The notes below the pieces were generated by a model. It was not told the DNA's origin, made no database searches, and was given only the letters and a program-made list of their open reading frames with translations. Below are positions 737 to 57,759 of a DNA stretch of 58,969 bases, in pieces. Where the stretch lies: contig JABANN010000160.1 of the NCBI GenBank assembly GCA_013115125.1, positions 1 to 58,969 of the forward strand. Direction: 5' to 3'. A program made the position numbers and the translations under genes. Position 1 is the first letter of the stretch; each line of letters begins with the position of its first letter. Origin of the DNA: Perkinsus olseni. Taxonomy: Eukaryota.

Positions 737-758
737 ATGGTCTGAGACCATTGGTCTC
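737..758. repeat. 22-nt double-palindrome scar, 8-mer atggtctc
   Basis: atggtct+gagaccat+tggtctc. Confidence 0.85.
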
Positions 759-1513
759 AACAGTATCGTGGTATGAATAACCACCCCAGTTCGTCAGTAT
801 CGTCACAGAGCGGGAGTTCCGAGTTGCCTAGTCTCGAGGGGCCACTAAATCCCGATATCGATCAGTCCGACGAATTATTACATCGGTACACTATTTGTCT
901 TTTGTGTATCTAGTGAAGACAAGTGTTTTATATCGGCTGTTGTGTGTTCCCCATGGCTGTTTGGAAGAGATGCTACGGTTGGTGCGCTGGACAATAGGTG
1001 AGTCAACTGGTGTACCTTACGACATTCTTAGTAGGTTTCTTGCTCGAAATGCGAGTTATTATCCGTGTTAAGAGAAAGCCGTATGGGTTAAAGACGTTTG
1101 TGACTTGTGCATCTTGATCGTATCTTCATCTTCTCCGCTACCTTTTTTTGTAGCCTGGGGGAGGGGCCCCGGGCTCTAATGTGCCGCATGGAGGCTCACT
1201 GCGAAAATGGAAGACTGGGAAGCCGATTCCGCGATTGGTGCATCGGGCTCAAAATGGCACCAATCGACTCCTCTCGTCGAGCTGAGTATAATAGTGATGG
1301 AATTTTTCAAATATTATGCGCCATTTTGGGGCACTGATCGATTTAGTTTTTCAAATTAAAATTCCCGCGGATTTTACTGTGATCATGAGTTCAGCAGTCG
1401 GATTAGGGTAGTTGGTTGAGGTTGTGAGCTGTTGGTTGGGTGACCCGGGTTCGGTTCCGCTGCGGGACTCTTATGCGGAACTTCCGCATAAGAGTATACT
1501 ATGTATGATACTA

Positions 1514-2016
1514 CACCATTTCCAGACCTACTTAGTGAAACCCCAGAGCAAATTAGTAAAACTCCAGAGCAATTTAATCGACACGCGAGACGCATCCGGA
1601 TCGTCCCTCCTCCCTGCCCGGGGACTCCGGCCATGAGTGGCGGGAGATGCGGTAGGACGAAGGCAGAATACCTCCTGCCGTACTGTGATATGTTGCTCCG
1701 AGAAGGCGTTGAAGCAGTTACTATGCAACTTTGTATACGATACTTCAATCACGCCCAAACGTTTTATCCTCGTCGCTCAGCTATGGAAGGCATGTCAGTC
1801 GGAGCCCCAATTCGCGTGTTCAAGGATTAAACTTCAACCTGCGATCTGTAGGATACCGAGGGCTTACTTCATGTAGGCTGACGTTGTGAGTTTTCGTACT
1901 TGCTAGTGATTTCGTTGGGCTCTTTCATAAAATCAAATTGCTTTGGGCTTTTACTAATCTGGTCTGGGCTTTATTGAATTGCTTTGGGGTTTTACTAATT
2001 TGGTCTGGGAATGGTG
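1514..2016. mobile_element. Non-autonomous TIR element (MITE, Tc1/mariner-like) flanked by TA
   Basis: Left TA|CACCATTTCCAGACCTACTTAGTGAAACCCCAGAGCAA matches the reverse complement of the right end, TA|CACCATTCCCAGACCAAATTAGTAAAACCCCAAAGCAA. Both ends carry ~21-nt subterminal repeats. No transposase ORF. Confidence 0.8.
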
Positions 2017-2204
2017 TAGTTGAGCGGTCATGCTTCAAGTCTGTTATGCCGAAGGGTGTCGGTTCGATTTACACTATGGCAATCACTTCCTTTCGCGTAA
2101 GACCGACTTTCAAAGACCAAGAGTGCAACATTTAAAGATTTCTTGTGTGCAACATCACCATACTTCGCCTTGCACGCGCAAATATGGTTCAACGAATCCC
2201 ATCG

Positions 2205-2274
2205 GTTTAAACGAACTGTTGCACTACTTTCAGTTGTTAGTTTAAACGAACTGTTGCTCTATCTTCAGTTGTTA
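2205..2274. repeat. Tandem duplication, 2 x 35 nt
   Basis: gtttaaacgaactgttgcactactttcagttgtta followed by gtttaaacgaactgttgctctatcttcagttgtta. Confidence 0.9.
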
Positions 2275-2725
2275 TCGTTTTCGAATGCTAGCTTACGGTA
2301 AGCTCGCCACCAACATTCCAACCAACGCCAGGTCTTGTGGATGCTCTTTATTGATAGACTCGTTTTTCGCGGAACTGGATGCTGATGATCTCATTACTCA
2401 CACGGCACTCTCAAGGTAAGAAGAACATTCATCTCATCCGCAATGTCATCTTCGTACAGTTGCGAGTGCGGAGGCAGTGAAGCTCCCAACTGCTCTTCCT
2501 GCTCGCGTCATTATTGGCGCCTAAGCATCATAATTGTCGTTGTGTCGGTAGTGCTCCTCAGGAGAAGATGCAGGAGCTGATAGCTGCTCTCGTACTCGCA
2601 TCACTACTTGTCACTTTCAAGTTCTTAGGTCTCGAGGATTCATTCGTTTGCTGATCGTCATACATCTCACATGCTGGAGGAGGATTTGCGTTTCCGATTT
2701 GATTACTGGTATGTCTCCTGAGTAG

Positions 2726-2747
2726 ACTCTACAGTAGAGTCTCTACT
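2726..2747. repeat. 22-nt double-palindrome scar, 8-mer actctact (inside a GT..AG segment)
   Basis: actctac+agtagagt+ctctact. Confidence 0.85.
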
Positions 2748-4160
2748 CCTCTTGTTCGTTTGGCATTGATTACTCAGGTTCTTGGGATTTCCGTACAGAT
2801 ACAGATACAGATGCTCATGAGGAGAAGCACACTGCGACCAGTTCAGTCGCATCGTTGAAAACGTTCGCATAGAAGGTGTATGATCTTGGTCCTGATAATA
2901 TTGGTTATCTCTTAGAAATTCTAAGTTAGAATATGCTGAAGGTGATATTAGTCGTGTATCAATAGTGCTGAAACGATATCTCTCCAGCAATGAACTCAAG
3001 CTTCTGTATATTTTCCCGTAAAAGAATTGTTTTATGTTGAGTTGGTGGTTTGGGATGTACAGTATTGTACGAAACAGTAAAATGCGTCAATCTGCACAAT
3101 ACTACACAAAGAGGGACAGCAATAGATGTTTCCATAGCGTAATCCGTTATCTCGTAGCTGATATACAGAATTACCGTTTCTTTTCATTTTTGCTGCATGG
3201 AGCTCCCAAACGACTTGCCGATTCGCCCCAAATGCCGTAAATGGGGTTCATGGGAAAGGTGATGAGGAAAGGTTATCTCCTATAAAATTTGAACGATGTC
3301 GTAGGATTCAAAGAAGATTTTTCTGTTGGCTGGATCGGGCTTTCCCAAACGCGGTACGAAACACTTGAGTAACATATATATTTATTATTGGATTTCTAGG
3401 TACCTCAAAGATTACTGTGGCAGGCCGCCACTGGCAGTGGCAGCACATAGTCGCTTGGATGACTTGGAAAACAATCGGACCGAGGTAGGTTGGTTTTGTT
3501 GGTTTAGTATTAGACTGATACAAGGTTCGGCGCTGAAGATCCTTCTGGGGGAAAAGTTGCCGCTGTTTCGTTCATCGCTAACGAGTTGTCCGCCGCAATC
3601 TGGGTTATGAATGCCGACTACCCCGAACGGGTTCCGTGGAGAAATGTGAATGATCTACGCGGACGCGTGAATGGTAACCCAGCCGAAAGACAACAGTATT
3701 TGGTAAGCATTGGGTGTGTATGCAATTGGTTTATGGTCTTTCGTAGGCTTGGGAGGTGGCGTGGAACCATATTAGAAATGCGCATTTCGAGCGTTCTCCT
3801 GTTAACACTGGAGTTCAACCGCACCCACGTGGCCGGTTGATAAGCAAAGGATGATAAGATATCTAGGCAGTACAATGTGGGTAAGCAACAATTGGGTTAC
3901 TCTCTTTCATTTGAATTCTTCCACCAATAGAGCCGAATCTTCATTATGAGCTTAGGTTCGGGAATAGGAAGGCGAATTATACTCATATTGTAGGTAACCT
4001 CAGAAGTCTCGTGATTATTCTGCGTTCAGATAAAAAAATCGTCTCTGATATTGCTGCCGTTTCATTGAGAACCTGGCTCGATATTCGAGAACATACATCG
4101 TGGGGGAGGTCGTCGCTCATGTTATTTTGTTGGTGGACTGGAGAATCTATTGATGATAAA

Positions 4161-4221
4161 TATCGTAGTAAGAAGCGATATAGACTATATCGCTTCTTAC
4201 TACGATACTATATCATATAGT
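4161..4221. repeat. Long double-hairpin scar, 8-mer gatatagt
   Basis: Perfect 23-bp arms around the single base 4184 (4161-4207), then actatatc+atatagt (4207-4221). Confidence 0.9.
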
Positions 4222-4796: not shown

Positions 4797-4894
4797 GTGA
4801 TGAATCATCACTGATGATGTTCTTCGTCAGACTTGCACTAATAATGTTAGTCTAACACGTACAGGTAATGGGACCACGACTCGTGGTCCACGAG
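4797..4894. repeat. Two 22-nt scars (4797-4818 gtgatgat; 4873-4894 accacgag)
   Basis: gtgatga+atcatcac+tgatgat; accacga+ctcgtggt+ccacgag. Confidence 0.85.
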
Positions 4895-5705
4895 GAGTTA
4901 TTGGATTTGTTGAGAGGGGTCCAAAAATATGATAGTGGGAAATGGATACCTTTATGATGGAAACTTCAACGACTTGGTCAAGATTGTGGACGCGTCATGT
5001 TTCAGCCGTGTCATTCAACCTGTTGGAAGTCCTATGTCTCTGGCAGACAATCTTGAGAATGATCCTGCTCTGGCTGAATCCGCTAGGAACGATTTTCCAT
5101 TGCCTTTGCGGCTCACTTCGACGACGAACAGAATGAGATTAAGCTTGATTATCTGTTCGACATACAGTATGCCAACGCACTACTCTGCAATCGATACTCG
5201 TACCTGTATGCGTTCTTGCTCTAGGCCGAGGACAGATATTCAGCAGCTATTTCTCCAATGCGGTGGCCTCTCTGAAATCACAACGGTGGTACGCGATGCA
5301 AACCCGGCCACCATACGAGCCGCTCGCTCTGTATTCGCCGAGCACTGTTCGGTCACGGTGCCACAAGAGGGATAGTATCCGCGATATTACCGCCGGATTG
5401 ATGCCTGCTTGATTCTCAAGCACCTCTGTTGGCATGAGCGAAGGCTTCACAGTGCACAGGTGTAGCATACACCGTGTAGGTGGCATCGTCGAGAATCCAA
5501 CAAAAGAGCAAAGCTTTCGGCTGCCGAAATTCGGAAGCCGATCAAGATCAGCTGCGAGAGATCACGCGGGAGATCACTACGATTCACTTGCAGGCATGCC
5601 ATGTTCCTGTTGACCCCCTCGAGGTCCTCCTTTCAGGGCTGGAAGTCCCCGTATGACACAGCGTTAGACTTTTAGTCTTAGTAAGATGCTATTGGACTGC
5701 GCGAG

Positions 5706-5902
5706 ACTTTGACTCAAAGTCTTTGAGTCATAACCTTATTTTCCGTGGTCGAGGTGCCAGACACCACTGCTGGAGCGTCGGTTCCAAGAGTACAAACAAC
5801 CCGTAAATCTCTAGCATGGAACCTCAACAATCATACCGAGTTCGCTCGTAGCGACTCGCTCCGTGCCGCAGCGCCGTTGTGTGGCTGCCAGCCACTGGCT
5901 GG
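5706..5902. repeat. Two 22-nt scars (5706-5727 actttgag; 5881-5902 gtggctgg)
   Basis: actttga+ctcaaagt+ctttgag; gtggctg+ccagccac+tggctgg. Confidence 0.85.
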
Positions 5903-8069
5903 TGGCGACGGTCCCTGACCACACAGCACATAAGCTATCTGTCCTCATATCTTAGCCTAGCTATTTCCATTTATTAATGATGATGTACTCTCAATAATTA
6001 AGACCTAATATCAGTCTCTTGAGAAGTCTCTGGTACTTGAGTTCACCATGAGTGGTAACAATGTCTTTGCCTAGCGTCATGTGAGCCTACTATCATATTG
6101 ATGGACGATTTTCTTCCTATCATTCGTCTACTCCAGCTATGGACAGTCCATAATGAACTTCCTATCTTGCGTGTTGTACGGTAGCACAAATGACATGGTC
6201 TCTCATCATAAGGACTCCATAACACTTGGCAAGCATAAGAGTCTTATGACGGTCGCGCGTGGCGACGCGCCATTGGCGAGTCCATTGTCAGCGACGTTTC
6301 AACCAGGAAGGCTGCCAATGGCTATTCGACGAATAGGCTCTGAGCACTGTGCTCATAATATGAGTCATATTGCAGAACAGGGGACCCCACGCTTGCTCAG
6401 CGCGTCAAGAATCTTGACTCAAGAGGGACTCGAAACTCAAACGGACCCGACAGGAAAGAGACGTTAGCTACTGGTAAGGGGCCAACTTAGGCAGCCTCTT
6501 CTCTCTTCGACTTGCGATTCTTGCGCCTGAGTGGCAAAACAATTCCACCAACATATTCGCCGGTTTTGGGAATTATGCTAGACGGCGTCTACTAGACGTT
6601 TATAGACTATAACCGAACAGAAACGCGATCGAGTTTGAATAATAAACTCAATGAACACGCTCGCTGGCCACGACAACGGTACTCGACGTACATTCTATAA
6701 ACGACAGCGTTGTAGTTAAATGGAAACGCACTCGGAGTTCGGTGGCACATCCGACCAAACAATAACCAGCGCGCTGCTCCTGCCAATCACTGCTATGTCG
6801 TTCCGTCAGAAACGAACCCACACGAGCTAGTCCTATCGTGAAACGCCCGGCAGTACTCGGTGGCCTTTTCCATCTGCTCCTTCACCCATCGATTCTCCTC
6901 CTGTTTGAACTCCTCGACATTAGAGGCGGGGAAAGCACCTTGCCTGAGGAGACGGAGCTACATTAGCACGCATTGCACATAACAAGGAATCTAGAGTGTG
7001 AGGCACAAACTGTGAGCTGAAGTTCGATTCGATTATTCGAACCCGGCTCGGCCAGGAGAACCCGGGATCTCTCAGGCTGGGCGGAGTCGAGGTGAGTCTT
7101 ATTCTTGCCAATAGTTACACTCATATTCATACTGTGATGATATTATGAATGGTGACCTCATGGTTTTGCACTCTATCATTGCACAGGTATGCTGTGTGAA
7201 GACTATTACATATATAATGATTGTAGTTCGTTAGATACAGTACCAAGTTGATGCTTTCAACTGAACTGATCCATACGGACAACGAAATCAACTCAATCGT
7301 CACCTACCTTGCATACACCGCTACTGCCAAGCTATTACTACACATATTGAGGCCGACCCAGTCACTTCGAAAATACAAGATAGAGGTTGATTCTTATCCG
7401 ATTCGAATGGAAGCAGACTACTTCTACTTCAAGGGGATTATATCTATGTATGATTTATCCTGACTTCGTGTTCTATTCCACGCGTGTCCCCGTCATTACC
7501 AGCGTCCACGTATCTTCTGGTTCTCCAACTCCCAGCTGGGCTCGCCAGACATAAAGTAGCGATCTGAAAGCAGAGAGAACCCCGTTCTCTGTGATGGTTC
7601 TACCGAACCATCACAGTCTCTTAAGTCGCAGAGAACATGTAGAAGCGCGATGGCGCAGAGATGTATTCACGCAGATTCAGTGATGAGCTTCTTTCAGTCA
7701 AGTAATCCAGAAACTTAGAATCGCATTTTAGGCGTTCAAATCAATTCGAGAATCGCCTCCCGAGTTTCACGAACCTCGATTTCCCTCAGAAGCGCCGCAA
7801 TAGTGGAATGCCGCCGATGCCACTAGTGACCATTAAGCAAGGTAGTTCTATTGTAGACAGAACTCCAGTGGAGTGATGGTGGATTACATCAAGCTACGGC
7901 ACGGGGCTTTGCGAGACAGTTGATGAAATGCAAGTACAGCGAAACCATCCAGCCAAAACTCACCAGGATAGCCGATACTCACTAAATCGCGCCGAAATAA
8001 GGTGTGAAACGCGCCATTTAGGGAGTGCTCAGACCTCACGACCCACTAGCAGGCTTGTGTCTTCGAATA

Positions 8070-8401: not shown

Positions 8402-8702
8402 GGACTTGGACGAACGTCCGGAGGTTCTGACTGACTCGACTCGCTGTAGAAGACCTAGGCAAGGCAGGCCCTACTCGGGACAGGACGATCAGACTGACGC
8501 CCTCACTAGTGCCATTGAGACGTGTTACACGTCAAGTGTATTTTTCGTATGTATATCGGAAATGATTCTTCCCACAATTCAGTGTGATCCGCTGGTCAAT
8601 TTCTCTCGTTCAACTTTATTGGCTCCCTGGTGTTCAGTGCCGTATACTCAATCGACCTTCGACAAACGTCTTCGTACAGTTTCGTTGTTTGTTCTATAAA
8701 CC

Positions 8703-11700
8703 ATGCCCGATGATATTGCGATGGCCACCAATGGCGTTAATGGAGACTATGATGAACCAACAGTGCAAGCAGTGGCTGAGTATATAAGAGAGGCCGTACA
8801 GGAGACTGAAAGGGCACTGCTGGATGAGGGCAAGAGGACCCCTGTAGAGCGATGGGTAGTGTTATGGTGGCAACTCGTGTTCACCGGCCTATTACTCATC
8901 AAGGTGTTCGATCGCATTGCTGGTACAAATCAGTAGGATCGCCTGTGCTCGACTGATGTCTGATAACGGTGATGTGCCCGCCAAACTTGTTCTTACGCAG
9001 TCAGTGTTAATCGTTTTAAATCTCCGGTAGCCACCATCTTCTTTGGAACTGGTCTGTATTGTTTCAGTCGCTCTCTGGTTCGTCTTTGACTTAACTCTCG
9101 CTTATCTCCGGGCAGGTGTATTCTTCATCATATTCACTCTCGCCCTATACTAAAGATGTAGTTCTCTGTTCTCAGGTTGATTTGGTTGATAGCAATAAGT
9201 GGCTGTCAAGCGCCTTGCTGGACGCCAAATTCATCAGCCCTCTTCGGGAAGCATCCCTTGGCACGAAGTCTCGGGGGTTCGGTAGATTTATAAGTGGCCT
9301 GGTGAGCTGACTAAGTTGTCATCGTGAGAGCCAGGAGCGGTATTTCTGTAGGCGTTCCTGATATCATCAGTGCTGCGAGGATTCGGCCAGGTGGTCTTCC
9401 AGGACAACCCATGTGAGTGGACGGGCGCCAGAGGCCGTGGTCAGCTCCGCTCGGTGCAGAACTGAGAGAAGCGTCTCGCTTCATCGCAACAGTCGTGACG
9501 GTATATCCATCTCGCACATTCGTCGGCATCTTGTTGCTATTATGTAGTTTCGGGTAGGAATGCTTAGCGTGACTGAATATGACCAGAGACAAAGCGTGGA
9601 GCCTAACGTGTTTTCCGAGGGAACGGAGTGACATTGAGTTGCAGTTAGTGACGGAGTTCATTAGTGAAATTTTCCTGGTTTCGGCGGGATCTCGGAACAT
9701 TATTCCTGAGATCTGGATGACTTCCTCAATATGAGCGTTTGCATTCTCGCGAACGATCCGTGAAAACTAGCCATTGGGCGTTTCTCAAGGTGCCATTGTT
9801 CTTTCATCAGGGACGGGCGCCTTTGTATGTGTTGCTGGCGGTTTACCTCACTGGCCGACAGCTATAATGGGCATCCTAGGATGTAAGGATCGATACGCCC
9901 TTACTCCCTACCTAGAGTAACGCGATCAGGTACCATCACTACTGTCTTTCCCTTGCTTGTGCAGCCACCGGAAACGAGAGCGTAGGTGGGCGGACCCTCT
10001 GTTCGCTCGCTCGCTTTTTGTTTTCTCGGAATGCCTGTTGTGATCAGGTTGGTCGCCAGTGGGCTGTACGGCTTCAACGGAGTACTGTTGGGATGGGGAT
10101 ATGCGACATTTGACAATAACATCCAGCAGGCTGATACATGTAGGATCAGGCCGTAGTGGCTGTGATGGGGATTTTCACTCTCAGTTGCGTCGGGTATCAT
10201 CGCGCTGCTGAGGGCCCTGCCAGCATTGCTCTTCCTTGGGGTAGTAACGGGAGAGATCTCGTTGATTTTACCGATCGGAGGGAGTCTTTCCTGATTTAGC
10301 ATGCTCTGCAGGAGAGGACGCGTCGTCCATGGAATTCGCCATAGTCGCCTTCGTGACGCTGCGGGGCTTGTGTATTGTGTTGGCCAACTCTGCGCTCCGC
10401 GCTTGCGCTTTTGGATTACCGTTTCGAGTCCTGTCTCTCAGATACTGACTGGCATCCTGCATGTCGTTATTAGTAGAAGCTTCACTAAGGCCACGAGGAT
10501 ACCTCCCTTAACTTGGCCGTAAATTGAAAGCCTCTGCTCGGCAGTGCGACAGAATCTCGGATAGGTATAACATCGCTTTGCTTATGTGGATGGCATGTGC
10601 TACACTCTCTACAAACTATGGTAATGGGGCGAGAGGGGAGAGCTGGTTGAAGCCCTTCTCAGAGGGGTTGTGGGAATGTGAATATTCCTAGCATGATGAA
10701 AGTGATTTTATTCGAACGAATTTTTCCTTTTCCTAGTGCTAGGGTCAATGATTCTGTATCATCGACTAGACCACGCTGTTGGAATGACCTCAAAAGTTGA
10801 GTCATCATTGTCCTGCTTTGATGGGTGTGGCTCTCCATCCGAATTTTTATTGCTTCGCCCTGTTGACTCGACCAATTTGAGTACACTGTTAGCTGATGGA
10901 TGGTCTTCACTTGGTGAGGTGTCCAGTGGCCGCTTGTCAGATTGTCTGACTCAGATACGCTTTTCACTAATGCCGCTACCCCGAGAGCTGTGGCGGGTGA
11001 CTACACAGTAGCTTGGTTCTTCGAAGCCTGGTTGAGAGGAGTCTCCCAGGTTGTCTTCAGTAATACTCGGGGCCCTTCACATGCATGGGAACTGGCCAAT
11101 GCTTGCGATGAAATTCTCATGTCTTCATCACCATGATCGTGGATTCTATTTCATCGTGAAATTCCCGTTCCATGTGGCAGGTCCGGATCTATGGTCGGGC
11201 GTAGTGCTGTTGATCGGCATTCTCTTCGGGTGAGTGTTGGTCCATGTCTTCTGTACGCGGTAGCGTCGTCACGTTCAGGTCGCCTTATTCTGTATTTCTC
11301 ACGGCGTACGGTGCCCTCATTGGGCTCCTAACCGGCATGGGCATCGGGCTCGACTTCCGCGGTATGCTTGATAGTGGTTTGGTAATCCGGTTCACGTCCG
11401 CTGATGCCATTCCGATCATCTATGTCAGGTCTGCTATAACCCAGTGCTAGTCGCGCTGTCTCTGGGCGGCTTTTATGTGGCACCCAGTTTGAAGGGGTTC
11501 ATTCTCATGACCTTCGGCTGCATGCTGTCGGTTATCGCCTTTCAGGGCGTGGTCAATTTACTGGTAATTTTTCGGCATTTTCGTGGCTGGATGATGTTAT
11601 TGCGGTCAGGTCCTGCCGAACGGAGGGCCGGCGTTGACTGCCCCGTTTTGTATTACGGTTACTATTCTGTTTGGCGCGATGTCCTGGGATTTCATCGACG

Positions 11701-12611: not shown

Positions 12612-12633
12612 TAGGTTACTAACCTAAGGTTAG
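12612..12633. repeat. 22-nt scar, 8-mer taggttag
   Basis: taggtta+ctaaccta+aggttag. Confidence 0.85.
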
Positions 12634-13825
12634 TCGAATATCTCGACGGATAGCACCCAGCGTTGAGCGGTTATGGCTGTATTACTAACCGTGATACTTT
12701 CTGCTGTTTGATGATCCTCGTCTTCATGCGGGCACGGCTGCCCAGGCATTTCTGTACTATATGAACTTCACAAGTTGATGACTTGACAAAGCGTACCCAA
12801 GTGATCACTCCTGGGTCTGAAATGAGGGCTCTGATCATGACACCCGACCATACGTTAACTCCGTATGTCTCGCGGCGGATCGGAATCGCCCAGTCTTCCC
12901 GGAAGCCCGGGAAGACTCCTCCACAAGAGAATGTGGGTTACTTCTTCAAAAGCGCCGCCGATTGCCACGCCAGCCGTGGAGCCGTTGGATGCATACCTTT
13001 TAGCAGACTAGATCCGGTATGATATCGGCGAAATCGTTGCTCTGAGGTCCCAGTGGCCTCGCTGATGGTAAGGGCAACAGCCTTCGTCTATCGGAACCTC
13101 AGGAGTTTGGCGGTGGGTTGGTTTCCTGGACCTTTCGGGGTCTGGCTGGTTTAATCAATTACAACTCGGTTATTGATCGGAAAGCCGATCATGAGGTTTT
13201 CCTAGGACGCCTGAGACAGGCGGCACAATTCATGAACCGCCAGCGGTCATGAAGGCAGGTCTCGGGTTATTAGGACCGAAGTGACTCCGACGGAGTCAGT
13301 GCCGCTGAAGCATATTCTCGGAGTTTAATTTAGTCTTCGGAAAGCGATGGCTGACAGGCCTCAAATCACAATCCCGCGGGTGATTGACTCGATTAATGGC
13401 AGCGTCAGATATCAGTGAGTGCGGTCAGTACAGCTCGGTCCTCCATTGATCGCAATTTTTACCACTCGAAGGAGGCCTACATCGAAGCTGAAACCTGTGA
13501 GAAAAGGGACAACAGTCTTTATCCCATTCCCATTACTCAAGACCCTAGGCTTCCGCTGAAAGCCGCGCAGGCTTGGAATCTGCCGCGGGGCATTTTTCCT
13601 CTTGAGCAGGCAGTGGAAAGTTGGCATCTGGTGGTGGAGTTCTACGAGAAAGCTGCTGCTTGAAGTTGGTTCACCTCCACTATCTGCTATCCATCATGGA
13701 TGATCCATGCTTTGCGAATGAATGCACGGAGCGTGACGTTTTTCGCATGCTCTTAAAGTTCCGAGCCCAGCATGCCGAGTGAATGAGAGCCCTTCCTGAA
13801 CCTGAGGGCGTCGAAAGGCCTGCGC

Positions 13826-13859
13826 CGGTCTGTCAGACCGGGTCTGACCGGCCCGGTCA
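13826..13859. repeat. 22-nt scar, 8-mer cggtctga, plus an overlapping third odd palindrome
   Basis: cggtctg+tcagaccg+ggtctga (13826-13847); tgaccgg-c-ccggtca centred at 13852. Confidence 0.85.
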
Positions 13860-15339
13860 AATCGTGCTGGAACTCGCGATAACGAAAATCATCTTCACCA
13901 AAAAATCGCAGAGAGAATGAGTTACTTGCTACCTTACGTGGACTCTCGTGTTCTTCTCAGGCCGTTCTGTCCGCTCGACGAGTCTGCGGACCCGAGGAAG
14001 CCTCTGAGATCGGCATCATATTCGGCGGTCGTGACTTTGATAACAAGCCTTTAGAGGGAATCATTTCCGACTGTGCTACCATGGCAGTGAACGACTCAGT
14101 TTAACACGTTGCGGCGTATAGCTGCGTCACTCCCTTGGCTTGACCACTTTCCTCGTCCATTCTCTATTTATACATCATCCGATCTGTAGCATGTATATCG
14201 CTGTGTTTTAGCTCTATGTACGAAGCGGTGTACCCGTCGAGGACGGGATCGTAGTGGTAGTGCTATGGATATTCTAACGTTGTTCTTTCTATATTGATAT
14301 ATATCCTGACGAAGGGATGACAGCTCCGCTTGGTCAAGAGTGGGTAGATTCGTATTGGTAGGGGTAGGCATTAGGTTGATGTTCTCGGGTTACCATTGAA
14401 TTCGCAAGTGTGTGGTGTTGCATCACAGTAATTAGTGAGAGGGTGGGGGCTCATCTTCGAAGTTGAGTCTAAGGGTGAGATTGACGAGGGCGCTGCAGCT
14501 CCTCGGGATATGCTGCCCCTGCGCCTAACAGCGGTCTAGGTACTGCTGCCACGCTGGATTGAATGTTTGGGTAAATGTGGAAGATATCGTGTCTAAGAGA
14601 TAGCACCACTTCCCGCGGATAAGCTCCACCATAAGTGGCTAATGCGCTCGGACTGTAATTGTTACGCAGTCTCGAACCATGTCACATTGGTTGGCAGCTG
14701 ACATTCTACGCGTCGCGTCAGGGTCATGGGGCGCATCGCCGCCGTCAGGAACACGCCAAAGCATCCCTTTGCTGTATCACAGTTTTCCATGTCCTGGCGA
14801 AAAGAATCTGACCATTGGCGCGGTTCTTGGCAGCAGCGGGAATCTCGGAGCTCCGGCTGGCATGACTGGCGGCAGAGAGGCACTGAAAAGTGGGATGCTG
14901 ATAGAGGAGGGAGATATCCTGAGTATGGCCGGATTCGGGATAGTGCTGATAGATACTATCCAATATCGAATTCATAGAAATGAAGTATTTATGAAATGTA
15001 TGGTATAGACTTTGGAATAAAATGGAAAAAGTGAAACCGATGAAATAATTCGGTATATAAAGAAGAAAGATCGTTGAATTTATGCTATTTGTGATTCGTT
15101 CATAGTTGTCCATTTGTCGAAGCTCGATGTAAATTTTTAAGATTTATGAGAAATGCAATTTCAGTAAACATCTCCTGAATAGGGAGGCAATGCCGCACTG
15201 CCAATGCGTCTTCGAGCATAAGCATGCAGGTATCAGATCAGCGGGGACCAGCGGTATGAGTACAAAAGTGGCAGATCGGCTCCCTCATGGTAGTAGTCGC
15301 TCTTGTTGAGGTCTCACTGCTAGTAGTGGTGGTTTTAGG

Positions 15340-18300
15340 GAGAGCAATACTCGACAACCACGCTGGGATGAAGATAGGAGTTCTAGAGGAGGGTACTGGG
15401 AGGGAAATGTAGTACGAGACTGGAGGCAGATTGCGAAGGTTTCCTCTCTGGCAAGCGCAACCCTAGTCGCAGGCCTCATCGTACATTTCCTAGGGCCCCT
15501 AGGCTAGGGGCACACATCAATATTCTGTGCATTTCTTGGGATCCATCGCGAGAACTCCTAATGTTTCTCCAGGATACCACCGGTAACTACAATCAAGGTG
15601 CAGCCGACTGGAGTGGAGCGACTGGGCGATGGGCTGGCGGTGAGGGAGCCGCGGCGAACCGTATGGCTGCTACGGAGGTGATACAGATGCTGTTTCCCGC
15701 GTATTCGGTCAAGTGTGTGGCTGTTCAGAGTGGAGGTGGGGAGAATTCGTCTGTCCGATCGCGTGCACGGTCACGGTCTCGATCTCGCTCTAGTCCTAGG
15801 TGAGATCTTGCGCTGCTCTATGGGCATCATTGGGGGCGAAACTGGAGCTAGCGCGTCAGATACACGCGACAGAGGAGTCGTAGTCCCGATTACTCGTATG
15901 ATCAGCGGGATACCACACGATCGAGTGAAGAGGAGGGCTCGTCGGAGCCGGAGGAGAGCGAGTCCATGTCTCCAGAGGGGATGGTAATACGTCGCTTGGG
16001 CTTAGCTCGAGTCTTTCACCGGTGCTGTTGTCTCTCGGAAAATTCAATCTGGGTGGGAAGTGGTCCCTAGGATCGCTCAAGGATCCGCAGGTGCTCTGAC
16101 TGAGTGGATTTGTCGATGGATCGTCTATAGGTTGTTCGGAGGGAGGCTGGCGGGCTGCTGGAGTTCGACGCCCCCTGCACTGTTAAAGGCGTGGAGTCCT
16201 TCAGTGAAGAGGAGAAGAGAAAGTAGTAGTGATGGTGGGAAAAATCTGTAGAGAGAAGATCCTTCATCCCCAGGCTGGGTCGAATAACTACATGGGAGGA
16301 AGCAGTCGAGCGCGGCATTCTGCTGCAGAGTGTGGTCAACGCCCTTGAGGCCTCCGGGGTGAGTTCCTCCGTCCCGTTGTTGGACGAGTGGGATAGCTAT
16401 TGTGATTCCATCAGGCTGCCCGACCCACCCCGATCCAGCAGCATGCGATTCCTGTTATAGCCGGAGGCGTGGATGTGGTAGCAAGCGCTCAGACTGGCAC
16501 GGGTAAAAACAGTCAGTAGAGGATACCTCTTGGAGCCAGTTGTGCTACTATCAGGGAAGAGCCTAGCGTTCATTGCTCCCATAGTCTCGAAGATTGGTAA
16601 AATGTCTTCGACTGTTCCTCGACCCTTCTTTCCTGGGAGGTAAGACATCGTGTCAAACGATTCGTACGAACAACGCCAAGGACTGGCCCGAAGCATGACC
16701 GCGGTCGAGTCCCTCGATGGTCGACGTTGCGCGCTGTAGCAGTCGATTTCTGAAGAAGTGGGTGATCTTGGGATTGTGGTTCAGGATGGCCCAGGCTTCT
16801 CCGCTGTGTATGGTGTTGGCCCCGACCAGAGAGCTGGCGATGCAATTGGTGAAAGACTTCGAGGTGAAGTGCCCTGCTGTTGGTGGAAGCTCGTGGATTC
16901 TTCGTTCGTCAGTCATGCTCTGTGAGTCTGGAAAAGGGAGAGATGTGTCGCACGAAGGCTGCTTATGGCGGGGAGACCGCATCGCGTCAGGTGAGGTGGA
17001 ATGTTCTGAAACGCGGGATGCCTCCGTTGCCCGTAGGCTGATCGCATCTGTGCAGAACAGCTCGATGTATTGGTTGCAACCCCGGGGAGACTTCTCGAGT
17101 TCAACGAGACGGGGAGGGTAATGGTGGCAATTTCCTCGTCCTCGTGGCTTGGTGATGAGTCTGCAGGTGTCCCTGGGGTACGTCAAGTTCCTCGTGTTGG
17201 ACGAGGCTGACCAGATGCTCTCGATGGGGCTTGAGGTGAGGAGTGCTATCCGTTTGTGATATATATTTTACTTCGAGATTCGTTGATAGAAAATAGGCGT
17301 CTACTGAATCAGTGTGCGGCGTCTCGGGTGTCAACTGTCTCCTTCTTCAGGCGTATGTTAATAATATATTAATGGAGACCGACCTGACGGAACCCAACGG
17401 CCGCCAGACACTTCTGTTCTCCGCGACCATTGACAATCCTAATTTAAAGCCATGGCTCGAGGGAGAGGTACGGCCTTCACAACTCCCTGCTGTTCCTGAT
17501 ATCCTCAGCCAGACCCTTCTCCGGAAGCAGCGGGTCACCATTGCCGTTGGACGAGGGCGAGGAGCTGGCGGTGCTGGAGGAGGAATGCGATGCAATGTTG
17601 CCCAGTCTGTTCGGGTGTTGAGATCGGACCAGGCCAAAGACCAAGCGCTTTGGGAAGATCTAGCGAAGCTCGACATTGCCAGCGGAGAGCAGGTCAGTAC
17701 TCCCAAGTTCGAAAGTCAAGGAAGATTCTGGAAATAGTTCGACTGATGGCTGTGTCGCCTGGGCGATCAATACAGGAACGAACGCAGTTATCGGGACCGG
17801 GCTTCGCTCTTGCCGTTGGGAGGTGCTCGTGAGCCTCTACCGTTGATTCGGCGCGGTGTGCTGTCTCCGCCCTCGCACTTGCGTTGTTCTCTCAACTAAC
17901 CTTAGGCCATTATTTTCGTGTCATCTCGTGATCGAGGCAAGGACCTCCATAAGCGTATATGCGGAAGTGGGAAGCTGTGCTGCGGTCTATTACAGGGCAA
18001 GCAACTGCAGACTGTCCGGGAGGAGGTTGTCAGGAGGTGGGATGTGATAATTAGGGGCGGTTGTGGAGATGTTTCCCTATCTTCGGAGTTCCTCGGTCGT
18101 GGGTCGCGATGATTTGTTGAGCATCTTCTGGTGCTCTGGACCGAAGGCGGTCAGCCTCGGAGCTCCTTCGGACTATTTCAAAGCGACGTTGGAGTTGGAC
18201 AGTCACTCTGACATCAGCGGCTGATGTCAGAGTGACTGTCCAACCCCTGTGAAATTGACTCACTCAGCAAGGAACACATAAACTAACGCTGTAACGCTGT

Positions 18301-24339: not shown

Positions 24340-24967
24340 GTTCGCTGACTAAGTCAAGTGGTGCCGGCTTTCTGCCTGTCGTCCCTCACCTCTTGCCGGC
24401 ACTACCACAGACCAGTACGAGTCAAAATGGAAAACTTAACGGCCCACAAGCTGGGCATAGAGACGTCGCTATACTCTGGCCGCCTACAACGCAGGTGACT
24501 CCAGCACCGCGTTACTCGTGATCCAGCACCCCGTTACTCGTGATCCAGTACCGCGCTACTCGTGATCCAGTACCGCGTTACGCGTTACGGAATGAGAACA
24601 AGCCCGGGGACAGAGGGTCCCTCTGTCCCCGGGCTTGTTCTCATTCCGTGAGTCCGCAGGCGAGCAGGTTGAAATTGACTACCGCGTATCCTCTGACGAC
24701 CTTGTCGATGTCCGCGTTGGTTGTCGCGGACTGGATGGTGTTCGCGCAACCTTTAAGTTGGTTGGAATCACGAGTCCCCGCAACATTTACTTTCTGTTTC
24801 CTCATGAAGGCAGCTCTCACCCGACTTTCCTGAATCAGGTAATACACCTGTGCGGAGAAGTGAGAGGTTTTTTCGATTCAATCAACTTCGCTGACCAGAA
24901 CAGGCTCTATGCGCCCTTCTCGCTCGACGGCCGACTTTCATCACAATTGCCTCTGGACAGGGTCTGA
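24340..24967 (+). CDS. Hypothetical lineage-specific protein, 5' end uncertain
   Basis: RRYTLAAYNA-G|EQVEIDYRV splices in frame across the phase-1 intron 24495-24659 into ORF 24635..24967. Confidence 0.45.
24495..24583 (+). repeat. Minisatellite, 4 x 22-23 nt, starting at the intron donor
   Basis: Unit gtgatccag(c/t)accgcgttactc, head to tail with no spacers. Confidence 0.9.
24587..24649. repeat. Perfect palindrome, 31-bp arms, 1-nt centre, intronic
   Basis: acggaatgagaacaagcccggggacagaggg-t-ccctctgtccccgggcttgttctcattccgt. Confidence 0.95.
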
Positions 24968-25061
24968 GGCAATGAGAGACGATACTTCAGTGATACCGAA
25001 TTTTTTAGTTTTGCTGGCAGCGAGTCGGCTTCATCAAATATTCTGGCCGCGGCTGATGTAA

Positions 25062-39955: not shown

Positions 39956-41048
39956 TAGATTCATTTAACGTGTTCCTGAATTGAATTAGTGTTTCTGAGC
40001 CACTGAGAGCGCTGCGTTGGAGTCGCCTCGGATTCTCGGCGAGTTTGAGTGGGAGATCCTCTACGCCAGAACCGATTGCCTCGGGTAGGGGTGACTGTGG
40101 TCGAACAGCAACGGCATTTTTCGGAGGAAGGTTGTATCATAGACTTCTTTTCAGCTTGAAGAGCGCAGCTAGGATTGAATTTAACGTTGGTATTGGCAGA
40201 GCGATTGGAGCACACGGGAAGACTAGTGAACCCCTGGAGCATCGCAATTTAGGGGCGGGTCTCTGAGACCCGGTTTCATCTCGTTGTGACTGAGAATTGC
40301 AGTATGACCGATGAGGTCGCGTCGGGCCATGCTTGCATGTTCCAACAGCCTCCTCTTAGTTGTTGTCGAGTACTTTCTCTATGCGGTAACGTCCGGAGGT
40401 CCGATTTTCGCTGCAGGCTCTTAAGGACCCTATGGACTGAGAGGTGTGGTACTCTGTAAAGGGCAAGTCCCGTGGATGATGGAACTTATGAGCGGGGGTT
40501 GGTATGATAAGGAAGGACTTTGTGCAGTCTGATGCTCTAACGCATACCGCGACAGTAGTCTACTATCAGTAGTCGAAGTTAGTACGAGAGAAATGCTCCC
40601 TCCAGATACTTGGTTAATGCCGTGGTTTTAAAAGACATCACGGTTAAGCTGATGAGGACATCAAAACCGATTGATCGCATCTCGTAACTTACGGTAATGC
40701 TGTACAGGAGCGGGAATCCCGGCAAGATACTTTCGGCGGGCCCGAGCTGTTAAATAATAATGGATAAGTATCATTAATTAATTTTCATCTCGGAGGCGCC
40801 AGAAAATTTTTCCTTATTGGACCTAATATGCTATCCTGACGCTGTTTGGGCGAAAGAATTGAGGACAACGGTGACCCTAGCACAATCGTTCCAGCTGGTG
40901 CTGATGCGTCCCACTCGACTCAGTAACACGAGAACTTCACCGCTATACAACAACAACAACTCATCGCACTGAGTAGATGGAAATTTAGCCGGTGGAATAA
41001 GACAGCTCACATGTGGCAGGGATTGGACCACAGCGACGATCGTACGGC

Positions 41049-42462: not shown

Positions 42463-42503
42463 GGAGCGCTGATTCGGCGCTCCCTTCAGCGCCGCTGAAG
42501 GGA
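42463..42503. repeat. Double-hairpin scar, 8-mer gcgctgaa, joined over tcc
   Basis: ggagcgctga-t-tcggcgctcc overlaps tcccttcagcg-c-cgctgaaggga by 3 nt. Confidence 0.85.
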
Positions 42504-54158: not shown

Positions 54159-55086
54159 GAGCGTCAATCGGATGGGCTTGAAATCTACGAAAAGCACCAC
54201 TGCGAACATACTCACACGCCCCCAATGATCCACTAGTCACCTCGAGACTCTTGAGTCGAGAGTCGTGTCTCATGCACCACGTCGCGGCGAAGATCGGGCA
54301 TGTCTCGGGCGAGTGCGTTCACGGCGTCACAGCGTCACGCTGATACACCCCGCCGAAGCGTATCAGAACTTCTCCGTAGATCTCGCAGATGCTTCCGTGT
54401 CCCCTATGCACTCAGTACTGCAACTGATGGATATAGTGCTGGTCACAGTCGCTTGGGTCTTGGCGTTAGGGCGTGTCAAGCTCGCAGGCCGGTTGAGAGG
54501 GTGAACTAGGTGCCCACAGGCGTGACAGTTTGCTCTCAAGAAGAGCAGGGTCTAATCTCGTCCAGGCAAGAAGTGCTGACTCTGTCCATGAGGGATTCTC
54601 ACAGCGATGTTTTTCTTTATGAAGTCAGTGCAACTGCTAGGCCGGAATGCTCTCCTGGGCGAGAAACAGCATCAATGTGGCGCTGAGTGTGGAAAAGGGA
54701 CCACTTGTCTTGACCAAGTGGCCCGTGAACAAACCGCCCCTGAGTGTCCGGCTCATCTGAAAGGTCCTAAGCAATAAGTGCCACTTTAGAAAATCCGTCC
54801 CTAAGTGTCAGTGTTAGTGGCAGTTTCTTGGGAGTAATGTGAAATAGGCCCCACATGAGCGAATAAGGAAGGCAGTTTAGCAGCGTGTCCCGAACAAACA
54901 ATCCTATTGCGCGTATGAGTGCATCAATTGATGGTTAGGCAGAACAGCTTCGCCGATGAGAAAGTCATCTGGTAGGAGTCGTCTGCAGCGACGCGAGTGA
55001 ACCTTCAGGCTGTGTCTCGCTCCTCAGCGTGAATCGTGCGACTATGTGTAACCGTATGACAGGACTCAACACAAGACGTCATCATA

Positions 55087-55766: not shown

Positions 55767-55931
55767 TAGGCACGAAGTCGCGCCGCCACAAATAAGAAAA
55801 CTCAGCGATTGCTCTGACCTGGATGTCTGCGTCTTGTCTGTTGATCCTTGGGTGTTGGTTCTTATTCTGGCCCCGCTGTGTGGCTGCAGCTACCGATATT
55901 GGGCGTCCGAACCTTGCAGGTGGAAAGGCTA

Positions 55932-56013
55932 TGAGTGCTGTGGGTGTCGAACCCACGCGGAAGGTGTCCAGTGGATCTTAAGTCCACCCCCTTAACCACT
56001 CGGGCAAACACTC
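55932..56013 (-). tRNA. tRNA-Leu(TAA)
   Basis: GAGTGTT/AGCACTC acceptor, AGTGGTTAA D loop, GTGGA-CTTAAGA-TCCAC anticodon arm, long variable arm, GTGGG-TTCGACA-CCCAC T arm; 82 nt. Confidence 0.93.
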
Positions 56014-56069
56014 ACATACAAAGACTACGTAGAATTCCTGACCTGTCAATAACTATATCATCTTTGTTG

Positions 56070-57150
56070 ATTGGGTGCGCTTGGAGCTCCACCTCGCTCG
56101 GAGCTTTCAGGGTCACTTCTTTTTCTCTACTTCTACTTTCTATTATTCTGTGGGACTTCCGCACCTGAAACCAGACACAGCTAGACTCTAGCTGCTAGAG
56201 TAATTAACCAAGGGCTGAATGCTCTAACAGCATTGAACCATATGCTGTAGTCACGTCGCGTGCTGTGATCGAGACACGCTGCGATAGCGAGGAGAGGAGA
56301 TACCTGCTCGGCCAATTTCTCAGCTTCTCCTCTAGCTTCCTCGAGCTGCTTTTTGAGAGAACTGGAGTGCCTGAGGGTCCCAGCGATCACCACTGAAAAT
56401 TGTGCTGTCTTACGATCTCTCAGCTGCCAATGCCCTCTCAAGTCGAGCTAACTTGGCCTTGTACTCGAGCTCTCGGGCGTGATAATCTAGAGACTGCAGC
56501 GAACCGCAGCCCATTTCCCCCGGGCGCTCTACAACGACTGAAAGGTCCCCTCCTCCAGTCCCTGTTGGTTCAGTAGAGAATATCGATCTCAGCTTCACCT
56601 CAGTCGGCACGCCTGGGAGACCTACTCCGCTTGAGTCGCCTTTCGAGGCAGGCTATCCGCTCTCGCAATCTCTCCACTTCACCGCGGTATCGATCATTAC
56701 GACGCATGAGGGCATATCGATCTTCAGTTAATCTCTGAAACTTTCGCATACCAATAAGGGCTTCGAGGCTAAACGACCTTCGTGCTCGGCAGGAGGGCGC
56801 GATGTGCTCTTCGCATACGCTTCAACTCTCACTAAGTGAGACTCACTTTGACCTCCTCCCGCAGGCTCTCAGCTAATGTAAGGCGCCTCGGTGACGATCT
56901 CTTCGTCTGAACTCCGCAAGAAACACGCACGGGAACCGCCGTGACGCTGAAACCAGTCGAAGAGAAGCTGAAATTAATCTTCGATCATCGGTGATCTCTG
57001 GAAGGGTAGAGTTTTTTACAGAGTCTCTGCTGGGGACCCTGGGATCCTTTCTATGTATTCACGAAGTGTCTCGTGTAATGTGTGCTCGACCATGTTTTCA
57101 GCCACAGAATCCACACCTTCTACGACCTGAATGATGATTGGTGAGCGAAC
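56070..57150 (-). CDS. Hypothetical coiled-coil protein, multi-exon
   Basis: Exon pieces VAENMVEHTLHETLREYIERI, DYHARELEYKAKLARLERALAAERS and SLKKQLEEARGEAEKLAEQ. Confidence 0.5.
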
Positions 57151-57352
57151 CCAAGTTCCATCGCAGGGCGACGGAAGTCTCAGGTCTGAACGACGTAAAA
57201 CCAAGACTCCTAATGAGCTAGACCACACGTATACGAATGATACGGCTCTCTCGGCGCCTCACTTTTTCGTGTGGAGCCTCAGCGGGGTACAATGGCTCTT
57301 CGACGGACATATGTAATGTGTATGTAGCCATTAACGGCCCGTTAATAACGGG
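56179..57352. repeat. Three 22-nt scars (56179-56200 agctagag; 56827-56848 tctcactt; 57331-57352 ttaacggg)
   Basis: agctaga+ctctagct+gctagag; tctcact+aagtgaga+ctcactt; ttaacgg+cccgttaa+taacggg. Confidence 0.85.
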
Positions 57353-57669
57353 TACAACACCTGGACACGGGTATCGCAAGCGTGCTTACTCAGTCAGGCC
57401 GTTTTTCTCGGTTGCCCGTTCTCCCTCAAACTGTGGCACAGCTTGTCAGGCAAAGCAAACACTCTCTCCGTCTTCCACAGTCGAAGATCCGCACATGCAC
57501 ACTTGCATACTGCCGACAGACCCGAACAGACACTCGTTGGTATTCCAAACTCAGGGACTCCTGACTCCAAAATTAGAAACACCTGGCGTAGCCTCTACAC
57601 TGGTCAGGATTTTCATCGATTTCTGCGCTCAAAACAATACCACCGCCCGGTTGAAGAATGCGGTGCCGT

Positions 57670-57759
57670 CCCGCGCCCTGTAAACTGTTAACTCAGTTAA
57701 CAGGGCGCGGGTCGGGACAGGGCGGTTTACAGGGCGGGGGGGGGCAGTTAACTTAACTG
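57670..57759. repeat. Double-hairpin scar, 8-mer gttaactg, with patchwork templated filler
   Basis: gttaact-c-agttaac (centre 57694) and cagttaa-c-ttaactg (centre 57752). The filler between them consists of inverted copies of the left flank. Confidence 0.8.

Follow-up and report, generated by a model that had tools for sequence, protein, structure and literature searches.

Eighteen perfect copies of a 22-nt structure, which can be written as X1-7 + revcomp(X) + X2-8 for some 8-mer X, lie in the 58,969 nucleotides of nuclear DNA from Perkinsus olseni analyzed here (the window; Table 1), and, to judge from their form, they are probably footprints left behind when a cut-and-paste transposon using hAT-type chemistry excised, a reading to which we give a probability of roughly 0.8. 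Perkinsus is a shellfish parasite that belongs to the alveolates. Different copies have no sequence in common. What we observe directly is a geometry that is exclusive to one combination of lengths, that has variants, that recurs in independent data, and that in one case is paired with an allele carrying a single 8-mer.

The 15 perfect copies named in the original prediction are all where it placed them, without a violation of the 14 constraints, but it overlooked three others (starting at 2911, 21573, and 35877), which brings the total to 18. Its imperfect copies are also present: those at 6404 and 40257 violate one constraint each, that at 54241 violates two through a single substitution in the middle block, and those at 6578 and 40552 have two substitutions each (three constraints at 40552). 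Dinucleotide-type shuffles gave 0.0 perfect copies (5 shuffles). When up to one, two, or three violated constraints were allowed, the window gave 28, 42, and 68 matches versus 0.00, 0.20, and 2.0 in 10 shuffles. Only one perfect copy was found in a control of unrelated eukaryotic metagenome contigs (80 loci, 513,959 bases). Counted by substitutions, classes 0, 1, 2, and 3 hold 18, 15, 14, and 24 scars versus 0, 0, 0.5, and 5.2 in shuffles, a spectrum that fits steady accumulation. With decayed copies included, at least 59 and up to about 65 scars are recognizable in 59 kb, or about one per kb, denser than the one per 3–4 kb first proposed.

Among the analogous patterns that we scanned in the window, unit length k = 8 with an offset of 1 is the sole enriched combination, and hAT chemistry predicts both of these values. 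At offset 1, the 18 perfect copies at k = 8 stand beside one at k = 7 and none at k = 6 or k = 9–13; for k = 9 and k = 10, the count stays at 0 in the window even with one mismatch allowed. Offset 0 gave no copies in the window for k ≥ 5, and offset 2 gave none for k ≥ 7. The peak at k = 8 over shuffled controls, proposed as a genome-wide expectation, is thus borne out within the window.

Table 1. Scars, related palindromes, and the empty site, by position in the window; X is the 8-mer from which each scar is built
Feature	Position	X	Remarks
Perfect scar	737..758	ATGGTCTC	in run X3 contig 249-807, 0 differences
Perfect scar	2726..2747	ACTCTACT	in run X3 contig 1980-4318, 0 differences
Perfect scar	2911..2932	CTTAGAAT	in run X3 contig 1980-4318
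Perfect scar	4797..4818	GTGATGAT	in run X3 contigs
Perfect scar	4873..4894	ACCACGAG	in run X3 contigs
Perfect scar	5706..5727	ACTTTGAG	in run X3 contigs
Perfect scar	5881..5902	GTGGCTGG	within 155-nt stretch 5794-5948 missing from X9 contig
Perfect scar	12612..12633	TAGGTTAG	in intron 12473-13957 (joint seen in X7/X8 contigs)
Perfect scar	13826..13847	CGGTCTGA	in intron 12473-13957; followed by another odd palindrome centered at 13852
Perfect scar	15489..15510	CCTAGGGG	in run X3 contigs
Perfect scar	21573..21594	GCCACAAC	
Perfect scar	25062..25083	GTCTGGCC	
Perfect scar	25214..25235	TCAGACTG	
Perfect scar	25635..25656	ATCACTCA	
Perfect scar	35877..35898	CTTGCTGT	
Perfect scar	56179..56200	AGCTAGAG	
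Perfect scar	56827..56848	TCTCACTT	
Perfect scar	57331..57352	TTAACGGG	
One-substitution scar	550..571		
One-substitution scar	5459..5480		
One-substitution scar	5515..5536		
One-substitution scar	6138..6159		
One-substitution scar	6404..6425		
One-substitution scar	8519..8540		
One-substitution scar	10936..10957		overlaps 3' end of intron 10620-10953/4
One-substitution scar	13688..13709		in intron 12473-13957
One-substitution scar	15187..15208		
One-substitution scar	25313..25334		
One-substitution scar	25812..25833		
One-substitution scar	26919..26940		
One-substitution scar	28292..28313		
One-substitution scar	40257..40278		
One-substitution scar	54241..54262		substitution in middle block
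Sole k = 7 analogue, 19 nt	6352..6370	CTCATAT	within cluster of four odd palindromes, 6322-6371
Compound scar	1454..1495	GTTCCGCA	X1-7 + 5 left-hairpin letters + 1 extra letter + 29-nt odd palindrome (right hairpin, arm 14)
Compound scar	4161..4221	GATATAGT	47-nt odd palindrome (left hairpin, arm 23) adjoins 15-nt one (right, arm 7)
Compound scar	42466..42503	GCGCTGAA	X1-7 + revcomp(X), 1 substitution; then 23-nt odd palindrome (arm 11) from right flank, joined without overlap
Complex scar	57685..57759	GTTAACTG	odd palindromes centered at 57694 (arm 9, imperfect continuation) and 57752 (arm 7), 58 nt apart, fit one 8-mer; interior not explained
Isolated perfect odd palindrome	18194..18244		arm 25; probable one-sided hairpin scar
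Isolated perfect odd palindrome	24587..24649		arm 31; immediately after 22-nt tandem array
Isolated perfect odd palindrome	28197..28239		arm 21
Empty site	5781..5788	GTTCCAAG	single 8-mer; diverged X9 contig has perfect 22-nt scar on same 8-mer

The palindromes of the window carry the same signature. Odd-length perfect palindromes are enriched about 20-fold (66 with arms of 7–19 and four with arms of 21–31, versus ∼3.5 expected), and even-length ones are not (two with arms of at least 7 versus ∼3.8 expected); the metagenome control of 514 kb shows no odd excess (117 odd, 158 even). Hairpins of the RAG/Transib type lack the one-base offset and yield even palindromes, and the Transib duplication is 5 bp, in contrast to the window, where neither even palindromes nor k = 5 patterns are enriched. 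In each of the three clean compound scars, a single 8-mer accounts for both arms and for both center bases, the latter being the complements of X8 and X1. The arms are unequal, as they would be had the left and right flank hairpins been opened at different points (distances of 5/14, 23/7, and 8/11 in the scars at 1454, 4161, and 42466, respectively); pairs of this type numbered zero in ten shuffles.

From this geometry we infer an element, an enzyme, and a repair pathway. An 8-bp target X would be duplicated on insertion. At excision, the transposase would nick one base into each flank and seal both flanks as hairpins, so that each hairpin tip would be the complement of the base formerly adjoining the element. 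Host nucleases would then open both hairpins several bases off the tip, exposing two 3' tails, revcomp(X) and X on opposite strands, that would be perfectly complementary. In-register annealing followed by fill-in would then produce X1-7 + revcomp(X) + X2-8 and lengthen the site by 14 nt, and the 22-mer may well be this product. Ends joined without annealing would instead leave two abutting unequal odd palindromes or one long palindrome. In the three compound scars the ends met without annealing, and blunt joining of tails with lengths summing to 8 yields the identical 22-mer sequence. Short palindromic additions at junctions are at chance level; the one product that dominates carries the complete inverted 8-mer, flanked by both copies of the duplication. 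Hairpin opening of the Artemis type typically occurs 1–3 nt from the tip, whereas the hairpins here would have been opened 5–31 nt from it, a difference that counts against the hAT reading. On repair in the organism itself, the excerpted text of a Perkinsus CRISPR paper mentions NHEJ in general terms only (PMC8062965). The mechanism as originally proposed, hAT-type excision through flank hairpins followed by their annealing, draws support from the k = 8, offset 1 peak, the odd palindromes, the compound scars, the allele pair, and the target sites.

The scars are also found, unchanged, outside the assembly. A DNA run that was filed independently (X3) yields contigs that contain all 10 perfect scars of positions 1–20000 and differ from the window by 0, 0, 2, and 0 letters, without gaps, and several perfect scars recur in contigs from other studies (X7 and X8). 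The allele pair comes from a diverged contig (X9), which matches the window to 5787, continues with 20 letters, which complete a perfect scar and include the next five window letters, and resumes its match at 5949. Of the empty and filled alleles proposed for orthologous sites, the indel, joint, and loose-end rows listed show at least one pair of single 8-mer and 22-mer, and no filled allele was seen among them. The pair is readable in either direction because slippage between the direct repeats of the scar would restore the 8-mer. The scars have built up over a long time, and lineages still differ in them.

Target choice points the same way, although the effect is modest. The 8-mers favor T at position 2 and A at position 7 (T at symmetrized position 2 in 27/64 versus a background of 24.5%; p = 0.0014 before correction for 16 tests), with extra biases toward a pyrimidine at position 3 and a purine at position 4; GTCT/AGAC occurs in 5/32 targets. 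Hermes, as its excerpted description has it, prefers nTnnnnAn, and hAT elements of the Hermes/hobo type make 8-bp target duplications (PMC10368747). The scars thus resemble Hermes target sites in unit length and in the T2/A7 preference, but the preference is weaker and accompanied by the extra biases, and the window shows no TIRs, BED finger, or hAT dimerization domain of the Hermes kind. As to location, the scars are mostly in introns and intergenic DNA. The proposed avoidance of exons is weak and counts against the hAT reading: long stop-free frames make up 50.7% of the window and contain 20/59 scars (p = 0.007), and among the perfect scars 7/18 (p = 0.22).

The closest precedent is Ac/Ds, whose footprints in plants, Saccharomyces cerevisiae, and Candida albicans, in the excerpted text of the comparison, contain palindromic additions centered on the complement of the element-adjacent base, which are attributed to the opening and subsequent joining of flank hairpins (PMC5873905). 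The palindromes of the window are centered in the same way. Ac/Ds palindrome arms reach 20 nt in yeast, microhomology is used at 85–100% of junctions, and in C. albicans 28 footprint types were found among 128 revertants, mostly with 0–3 palindromic letters (PMC5873905). Unlike these heterogeneous spectra, the window is dominated by one product, which counts against the hAT reading; moreover, the Ac/Ds events were induced at a reporter locus, whereas the window holds natural, fixed scars, about one in every kb, and shows no element. Indeed, no filled site was found within the window by a search for an 8-bp duplication with an 11-nt TIR (at most one mismatch in each) or a perfect duplication with a 12-nt TIR; a high-copy TIR element at 1510–2020 lacks an 8-bp duplication. 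Likewise, 0/92 stop-free window frames of at least 110 codons match Pfam families of hAT, BED, or other transposase domains. The missing filled site and the missing transposase domain both count against the hAT reading.

These absences bear on who made the scars. Transposase-type enzymes more generally form flank hairpins, and off-centre opening of such hairpins leaves palindromic letters, as in the P nucleotides that RAG leaves at V(D)J coding joints (PMC5499845, in excerpt). A different superfamily with flank hairpins and 8-bp duplications, MULE-like or an uncharacterized DDE family rather than hAT proper, could have done the same, since no hAT transposase is seen in the window frames and the MULE Muta1 combines hairpins on flanking DNA with 8- or 9-bp duplications (PMC5499845). 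We regard this as unlikely, however, because k = 9 copies are absent from the window even with one mismatch, the T2/A7 preference matches Hermes, the Muta1 flank hairpin is even-length (43 + 43 = 86 nt), where here odd palindromes alone are enriched, and more than 90% of Muta1 excisions in yeast are precise (PMC5499845). Less probable still is that a domesticated hAT-like transposase purges insertions, so that the scars would record genome cleaning or programmed excision rather than selfish transposition. The ratio of scars (at least 59 in 59 kb) to resident elements flanked by 8-bp duplications (none) and the dominance of a single repair product would fit this idea, as would Kat1, reportedly a domesticated hAT transposase that makes hairpins. 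But no such gene is seen in the window, the ratio is equally explained if a handful of elements are very active and insertions are selected against because the genome is compact, and the flat decay spectrum requires no programme.

Two further explanations dispense with a transposon. DNA breaks are known to acquire templated inverted insertions, and template switching or snap-back synthesis of a polymerase-theta-like kind at random breaks would make the unseen element unnecessary. Such events have no fixed length, whereas here the unit is 8 with a one-base offset in 18/18 perfect copies and 0–1 copies occur at other k; perfect palindromes centered on a single base would need a covalent hairpin rather than a looped, folded-back primer; and a pair of hairpins on one duplicated 8-mer accounts for the compound scars. 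This origin therefore seems highly improbable. The idea that the pattern is an artefact of assembly or sequencing, or else a functional motif, has nothing in its favor beyond the oddness of the pattern and is scarcely credible, because the copies share no sequence, decay by substitution like neutral DNA, and are missing from unrelated assemblies (one perfect copy in 514 kb). An artefact in particular is ruled out, since the scars recur in contigs that were assembled separately from the runs of three other studies.

Excision footprints of hAT elements are textbook knowledge, but those described are infrequent lesions of varied form at reporter loci. Here they are a major feature of the genome: 59 kb contain at least 59–65 recognizable scars, which represent essentially a single stereotyped product, and no resident element lies close by; full-text searches on Perkinsus and on footprints, outside subscription journals, gave no earlier report. 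If its shape reflects hAT-type visits, the pattern suggests that the window densely records past visits by transposons, about one scar per kb, and the lone perfect scar in an unrelated metagenome contig suggests that similar records may exist in other eukaryotes. More tentatively, Perkinsus genomes might be subject to continuous hit-and-run transposition, in which a hAT-like element that is highly mobile but low in copy number, or else a hAT-derived purging nuclease retained by the host, would visit roughly every kb of non-coding DNA and nearly always leave, the breaks being healed by one almost deterministic pathway of distal hairpin opening and tail annealing. Were this so, the repair landscape would lack classical hairpin processing of the Artemis/Ku type, the scars would steadily lengthen introns and spacers by 14 nt at a time, and they would form a countable, datable, strain-polymorphic record of transposition and would also show, in nature, how an alveolate parasite repairs double-strand breaks. 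If the pattern is genome-wide, it would allow past transposon visits that are invisible to repeat-finders to be counted and dated independently of sequence, provide insertion/excision markers that distinguish Perkinsus lineages, and offer a natural experiment on how an alveolate opens and joins DNA hairpins.

A scan of the full window returns 18 perfect scars, 22-mers of the form X1-7 + revcomp(X) + X2-8 in which X is an 8-mer target, and shuffled sequences return none. All 15 perfect and five imperfect copies of the original prediction lie where it had placed them, and three perfect copies that it had missed are found at 2911, 21573 and 35877. When at most one, two or three violated constraints are allowed, the window contains 28, 42 and 68 matches, versus means of 0.00, 0.20 and 2.0 in 10 shuffles; 59 scar sites are left once overlaps are removed.

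The enrichment had been expected to peak at k=8 and offset 1, and in a check run on the window the peak is there alone. At offset 1, the window scan finds no copies at k=6 or k=9-13 and one at k=7; at offset 0 it finds none for k of at least 5, and at offset 2 none for k of at least 7. Permitting one mismatch at k=9 and k=10 still gives no copy in the window. Perfect odd palindromes number 66 with arms of 7-19 and four with arms of 21-31 (~3.5 expected), and even palindromes with arms of at least 7 are not enriched (two, versus ~3.8 expected). As a negative control we used 80 metagenome loci (513,959 bases), all from distant eukaryotes (at most 52% protein identity), which contain one perfect scar and show no excess of odd over even palindromes (117 versus 158). 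That lone scar, with X=GTACAATG, lies at 7759-7780 of L065, an unrelated eukaryotic contig, where ~0.002 are expected by chance in 514 kb; the same repair product thus occurs, rarely, outside Perkinsus. Within the window, the sole k=7 analogue belongs to a cluster at 6322-6371 of four odd palindromes that overlap or adjoin one another, and this cluster may reflect repeated events at one spot.

The letters of the scars are independent of the window's assembly; X3, an independently filed DNA run, is possibly of the same strain as the window. Logan-built X3 contigs cover 10 of the 10 perfect scars of 1-20000 (see table), and contigs of X7 and X8, runs of two further studies, cover the scars at 737, 5706, 12612 and 13826 and show no difference at those places.

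Positions of matching contigs, compound scars and tRNA genes in the window
Feature	Coordinates	Strand	Description
X3 contig	249-807		0 differing letters, 0 gaps
X3 contig	1980-4318		0 differing letters, 0 gaps
X3 contig	4294-7974		2 differing letters, 0 gaps
X3 contig	8373-20000		0 differing letters, 0 gaps
Compound scar	1454-1495		GTTCCGCA X1-7, then the five first revcomp letters, one additional letter and a palindrome of 29 nt (arm 14)
Compound scar	4161-4221		47-nt palindrome (arm 23) abutting a 15-nt palindrome
Compound scar	42466-42503		GCGCTGAA X1-7 and full revcomp (one substitution), then a 23-nt right-flank palindrome (arm 11)
Fourth, more complex case	57685-57759		GTTAACTG
tRNA-Gly(GCC) gene	50574-50646	minus	
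tRNA-Leu(TAA) gene	55931-56014	minus	

Allelic differences come from X9, the run of a diverged relative, which has the same organism label as the window and yet shares only 20% of sampled words with it, its contigs being mostly 90-95% identical. Empty alleles with a single 8-mer had been anticipated at orthologous scar sites, and one such pair of window and X9 is seen among the matches listed. Here, an X9 contig aligns to the window up to 5787, continues with 20 unplaced letters and resumes at 5949. The window has GTTCCAAG at 5781-5788, followed by AGTAC; of the unplaced letters, the first 15 read as revcomp(GTTCCAAG) plus letters 2-8 of that 8-mer, and the last five as AGTAC. The unplaced letters complete the 22-mer, so X9 has a perfect scar where the window has one 8-mer. 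The 155-nt stretch 5794-5948, which includes the scar at 5881, is absent from the X9 contig and starts 5 nt downstream of the X9-specific scar. This pair shows that 8-mer and 22-mer are alternative states of one site, either possibly ancestral, and it does not decide between them because slippage between the direct repeats of the scar would restore the 8-mer. Elsewhere, X9 contigs lack 15 window letters within 15282-15622, which contains the scar at 15489, and have 16 extra letters within 5972-6371; both gaps would fit further polymorphic scars. Other X9 rearrangements that we inspected (538->2216, 2385->2470, 4639->4679 and the omission of 15 letters at 5373) are not interpretable as footprints.

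We looked for odd palindromes that pair up to imply one common 8-mer by both arms and centres. The search returns the 18 standard scars, whose centres are spaced by 7, and two differently spaced pairs, versus none in 10 shuffles. From reading these pairs and other long palindromes, we recognize three clean compound scars, in which two odd palindromes with unequal arms fit one 8-mer. At 4161-4221, the left arm's final 7 letters, the complements of both centres and the right arm all spell GATATAGT; at 1454-1495, X2-8 and the right flank make up the 29-nt palindrome. Perfect odd palindromes also occur in isolation, with arms of 21, 25 and 31, and within 24495-24649 a 22-nt tandem array (4.1 copies) adjoins a perfect 63-nt odd palindrome. 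Judged from their letters, these products are what would be expected from covalently closed flank hairpins, each with a tip complementary to the duplicated base that lies outermost. They would arise if the two hairpins were opened at differing distances (5 to 31 nt), many of them large, and were joined unpaired afterwards.

We infer that the standard 22-mer would derive from the same flank hairpins. Opening of the left hairpin on its 3' side would yield a top-strand tail x8'...x1', and the right hairpin would yield a bottom-strand tail x1...x8, the two tails being complementary over 8 nt. In-register pairing and fill-in would then generate X1-7 + revcomp(X) + X2-8 when the opening distances total at least 9, and blunt joining would yield the identical 22-mer if they total exactly 8. 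Junctions whose palindromic additions are shorter, with distances totalling 1-7 and with the classical footprint of a single complementary base per side among them, are at chance level in a scan of the window; hence, either hairpins would seldom be opened near the tip, or such ends would be restored precisely and without trace.

Several known systems bear on the origin of these products. The available portions of work on Ac/Ds footprints in plants, yeast and Candida describe palindromic additions that have the complement of the element-adjacent base at their centre, with arms of up to 20 nt in yeast and with microhomology used at most junctions (PMC5873905). The chemistry that the Perkinsus scars suggest would be the same. 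Compared with the Ac/Ds footprints in those portions, however, short additions are nearly absent, one 22-nt product dominates, the scars are naturally fixed at about one per kb, and no elements lie nearby in the window. MULEs also share flank hairpins and 8-9-bp duplications, but in the accessible account of the MULE Muta1 the hairpin is of even length (43+43) and excisions are mostly precise (PMC5499845), whereas here k=9 is empty. Even palindromes of the RAG/Transib type are not enriched in the window. Taken together, the analysis supports the hAT-type excision put forward in the original prediction, to which we assign a probability of roughly 0.8; we infer the element, the enzyme and the repair pathway. 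On repair in Perkinsus, the one genome-editing paper found mentions NHEJ, in its available text, in general terms only (PMC8062965). Our full-text search, which covered the main text of papers largely from non-subscription journals, turned up no description of scars like these, either from Perkinsus or as a record spanning a genome.

Target preference was examined in 32 8-mers, from the 28 scars with at most one violated constraint, the three compound scars and the X9 scar, and counts were symmetrised since scars have no orientation. Position 2 is T, which amounts to A at position 7, in 27 of 64, versus a background of 24.5% (uncorrected p=0.0014); pyrimidines occupy position 3 in 43 of 64, and purines position 4 in 41 of 64. 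For Hermes, the accessible part of one study gives the preference nTnnnnAn (PMC10368747). GTCT/AGAC is found in 5 of the 32 targets, versus 3.8% of window 8-mers (p=0.007), and is possibly an extra target preference.

Within the window, two scans for terminal inverted repeats (TIRs) plus duplication detect no TIR element with an 8-bp duplication, and Pfam scans detect no transposase domain in 92 of 92 long frames, only host genes. A high-copy element at 1510-2020 (contig depth ~30-100x single-copy) ends in inverted repeats of ~51 nt, and its subterminal repeats of 21 nt contain CCAGACC/GGTCTGG; its parts are joined in opposite orientation in other genomic copies (joint 1560/1883). It has no 8-bp duplication and is not supported as the source of the scars. 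The inverted repeat 49338-49476 / 53403-53529 is not an element, because it has no duplication, and genes for a tRNA and a peptidase lie between its arms. Further high-copy repeats at 1142-1306 and 8062-8401 are bounded by loose contig ends in several runs and have no Pfam or Rfam match.

The window itself is nuclear DNA of a Perkinsus olseni-like alveolate, as indicated by protein matches, host domains, two tRNA genes and GT..AG introns. A frame of 192 aa at 25853-26431 shares 99% identity with a Perkinsus olseni protein and also matches P. marinus and P. chesapeaki; Pfam assigns eukaryotic host domains to long frames (RNB, helicase, N6-adenine methyltransferase-like, peptidase C13 and others), and spliced contigs from two RNA-like runs define the introns, no run that contains the window being on record as RNA. 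A 27-nt fragment at 39903-39929 resembles the 3' part of the tRNA-Gly gene; tRNA-gene-targeting Dada transposons are reported in P. marinus (PMC3706591). The gene at 8855-11277 has many 45-66 nt GT..AG introns among longer ones (121-398 nt, then 1485 nt). One spliced RNA-like X8 contig begins at 8678 with 10 unmatched letters, TCTTGGCTCA, which we take for the 3' terminus of the Perkinsus/dinoflagellate spliced leader; if so, 8678 would be a trans-splice acceptor of the gene 8678-14398.

Per 5 kb, scars are densest at 5-10 kb (13) and sparsest at 45-55 kb (1), and the gene-dense 36-55 kb part has few. Between 8678 and 20000, 8 of 12 scars lie inside two introns among the joints listed, 10620-10953 and 12473-13957, the latter with six scars in 1.5 kb; in the gene at 8855-11277 they are seen in two longer introns only (334 and 1485 nt). 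Intron 10620-10953/4 has its 3' splice site in the one-substitution scar 10936-10957, which includes the AG acceptor. RNA contigs do not cover ~14880-15642 (scars 15187 and 15489) or ~18010-19343 (palindrome 18194-18244); these parts are probably introns, but since none of the listed joints bridges them we left them out of the evidence. Stop-free frames of at least 110 codons make up 50.7% of the window and wholly contain 20 of the 59 scars (p=0.007) and 7 of the 18 perfect ones (p=0.22), and no scar overlaps a Pfam-matched stretch, such stretches totalling just ~2 kb. It is plausible, if weakly tested, that scars avoid coding sequence. Sorted by substitutions, 18 sites have none, 15 have one, 14 have two and 24 have three, versus shuffle means of 0, 0, 0.5 and 5.2, and these counts, decayed copies included, give a total of ~65 scars in the window, or ~1.1 per kb. 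This near-flat spectrum is what would be expected if scars accumulate steadily and decay neutrally.
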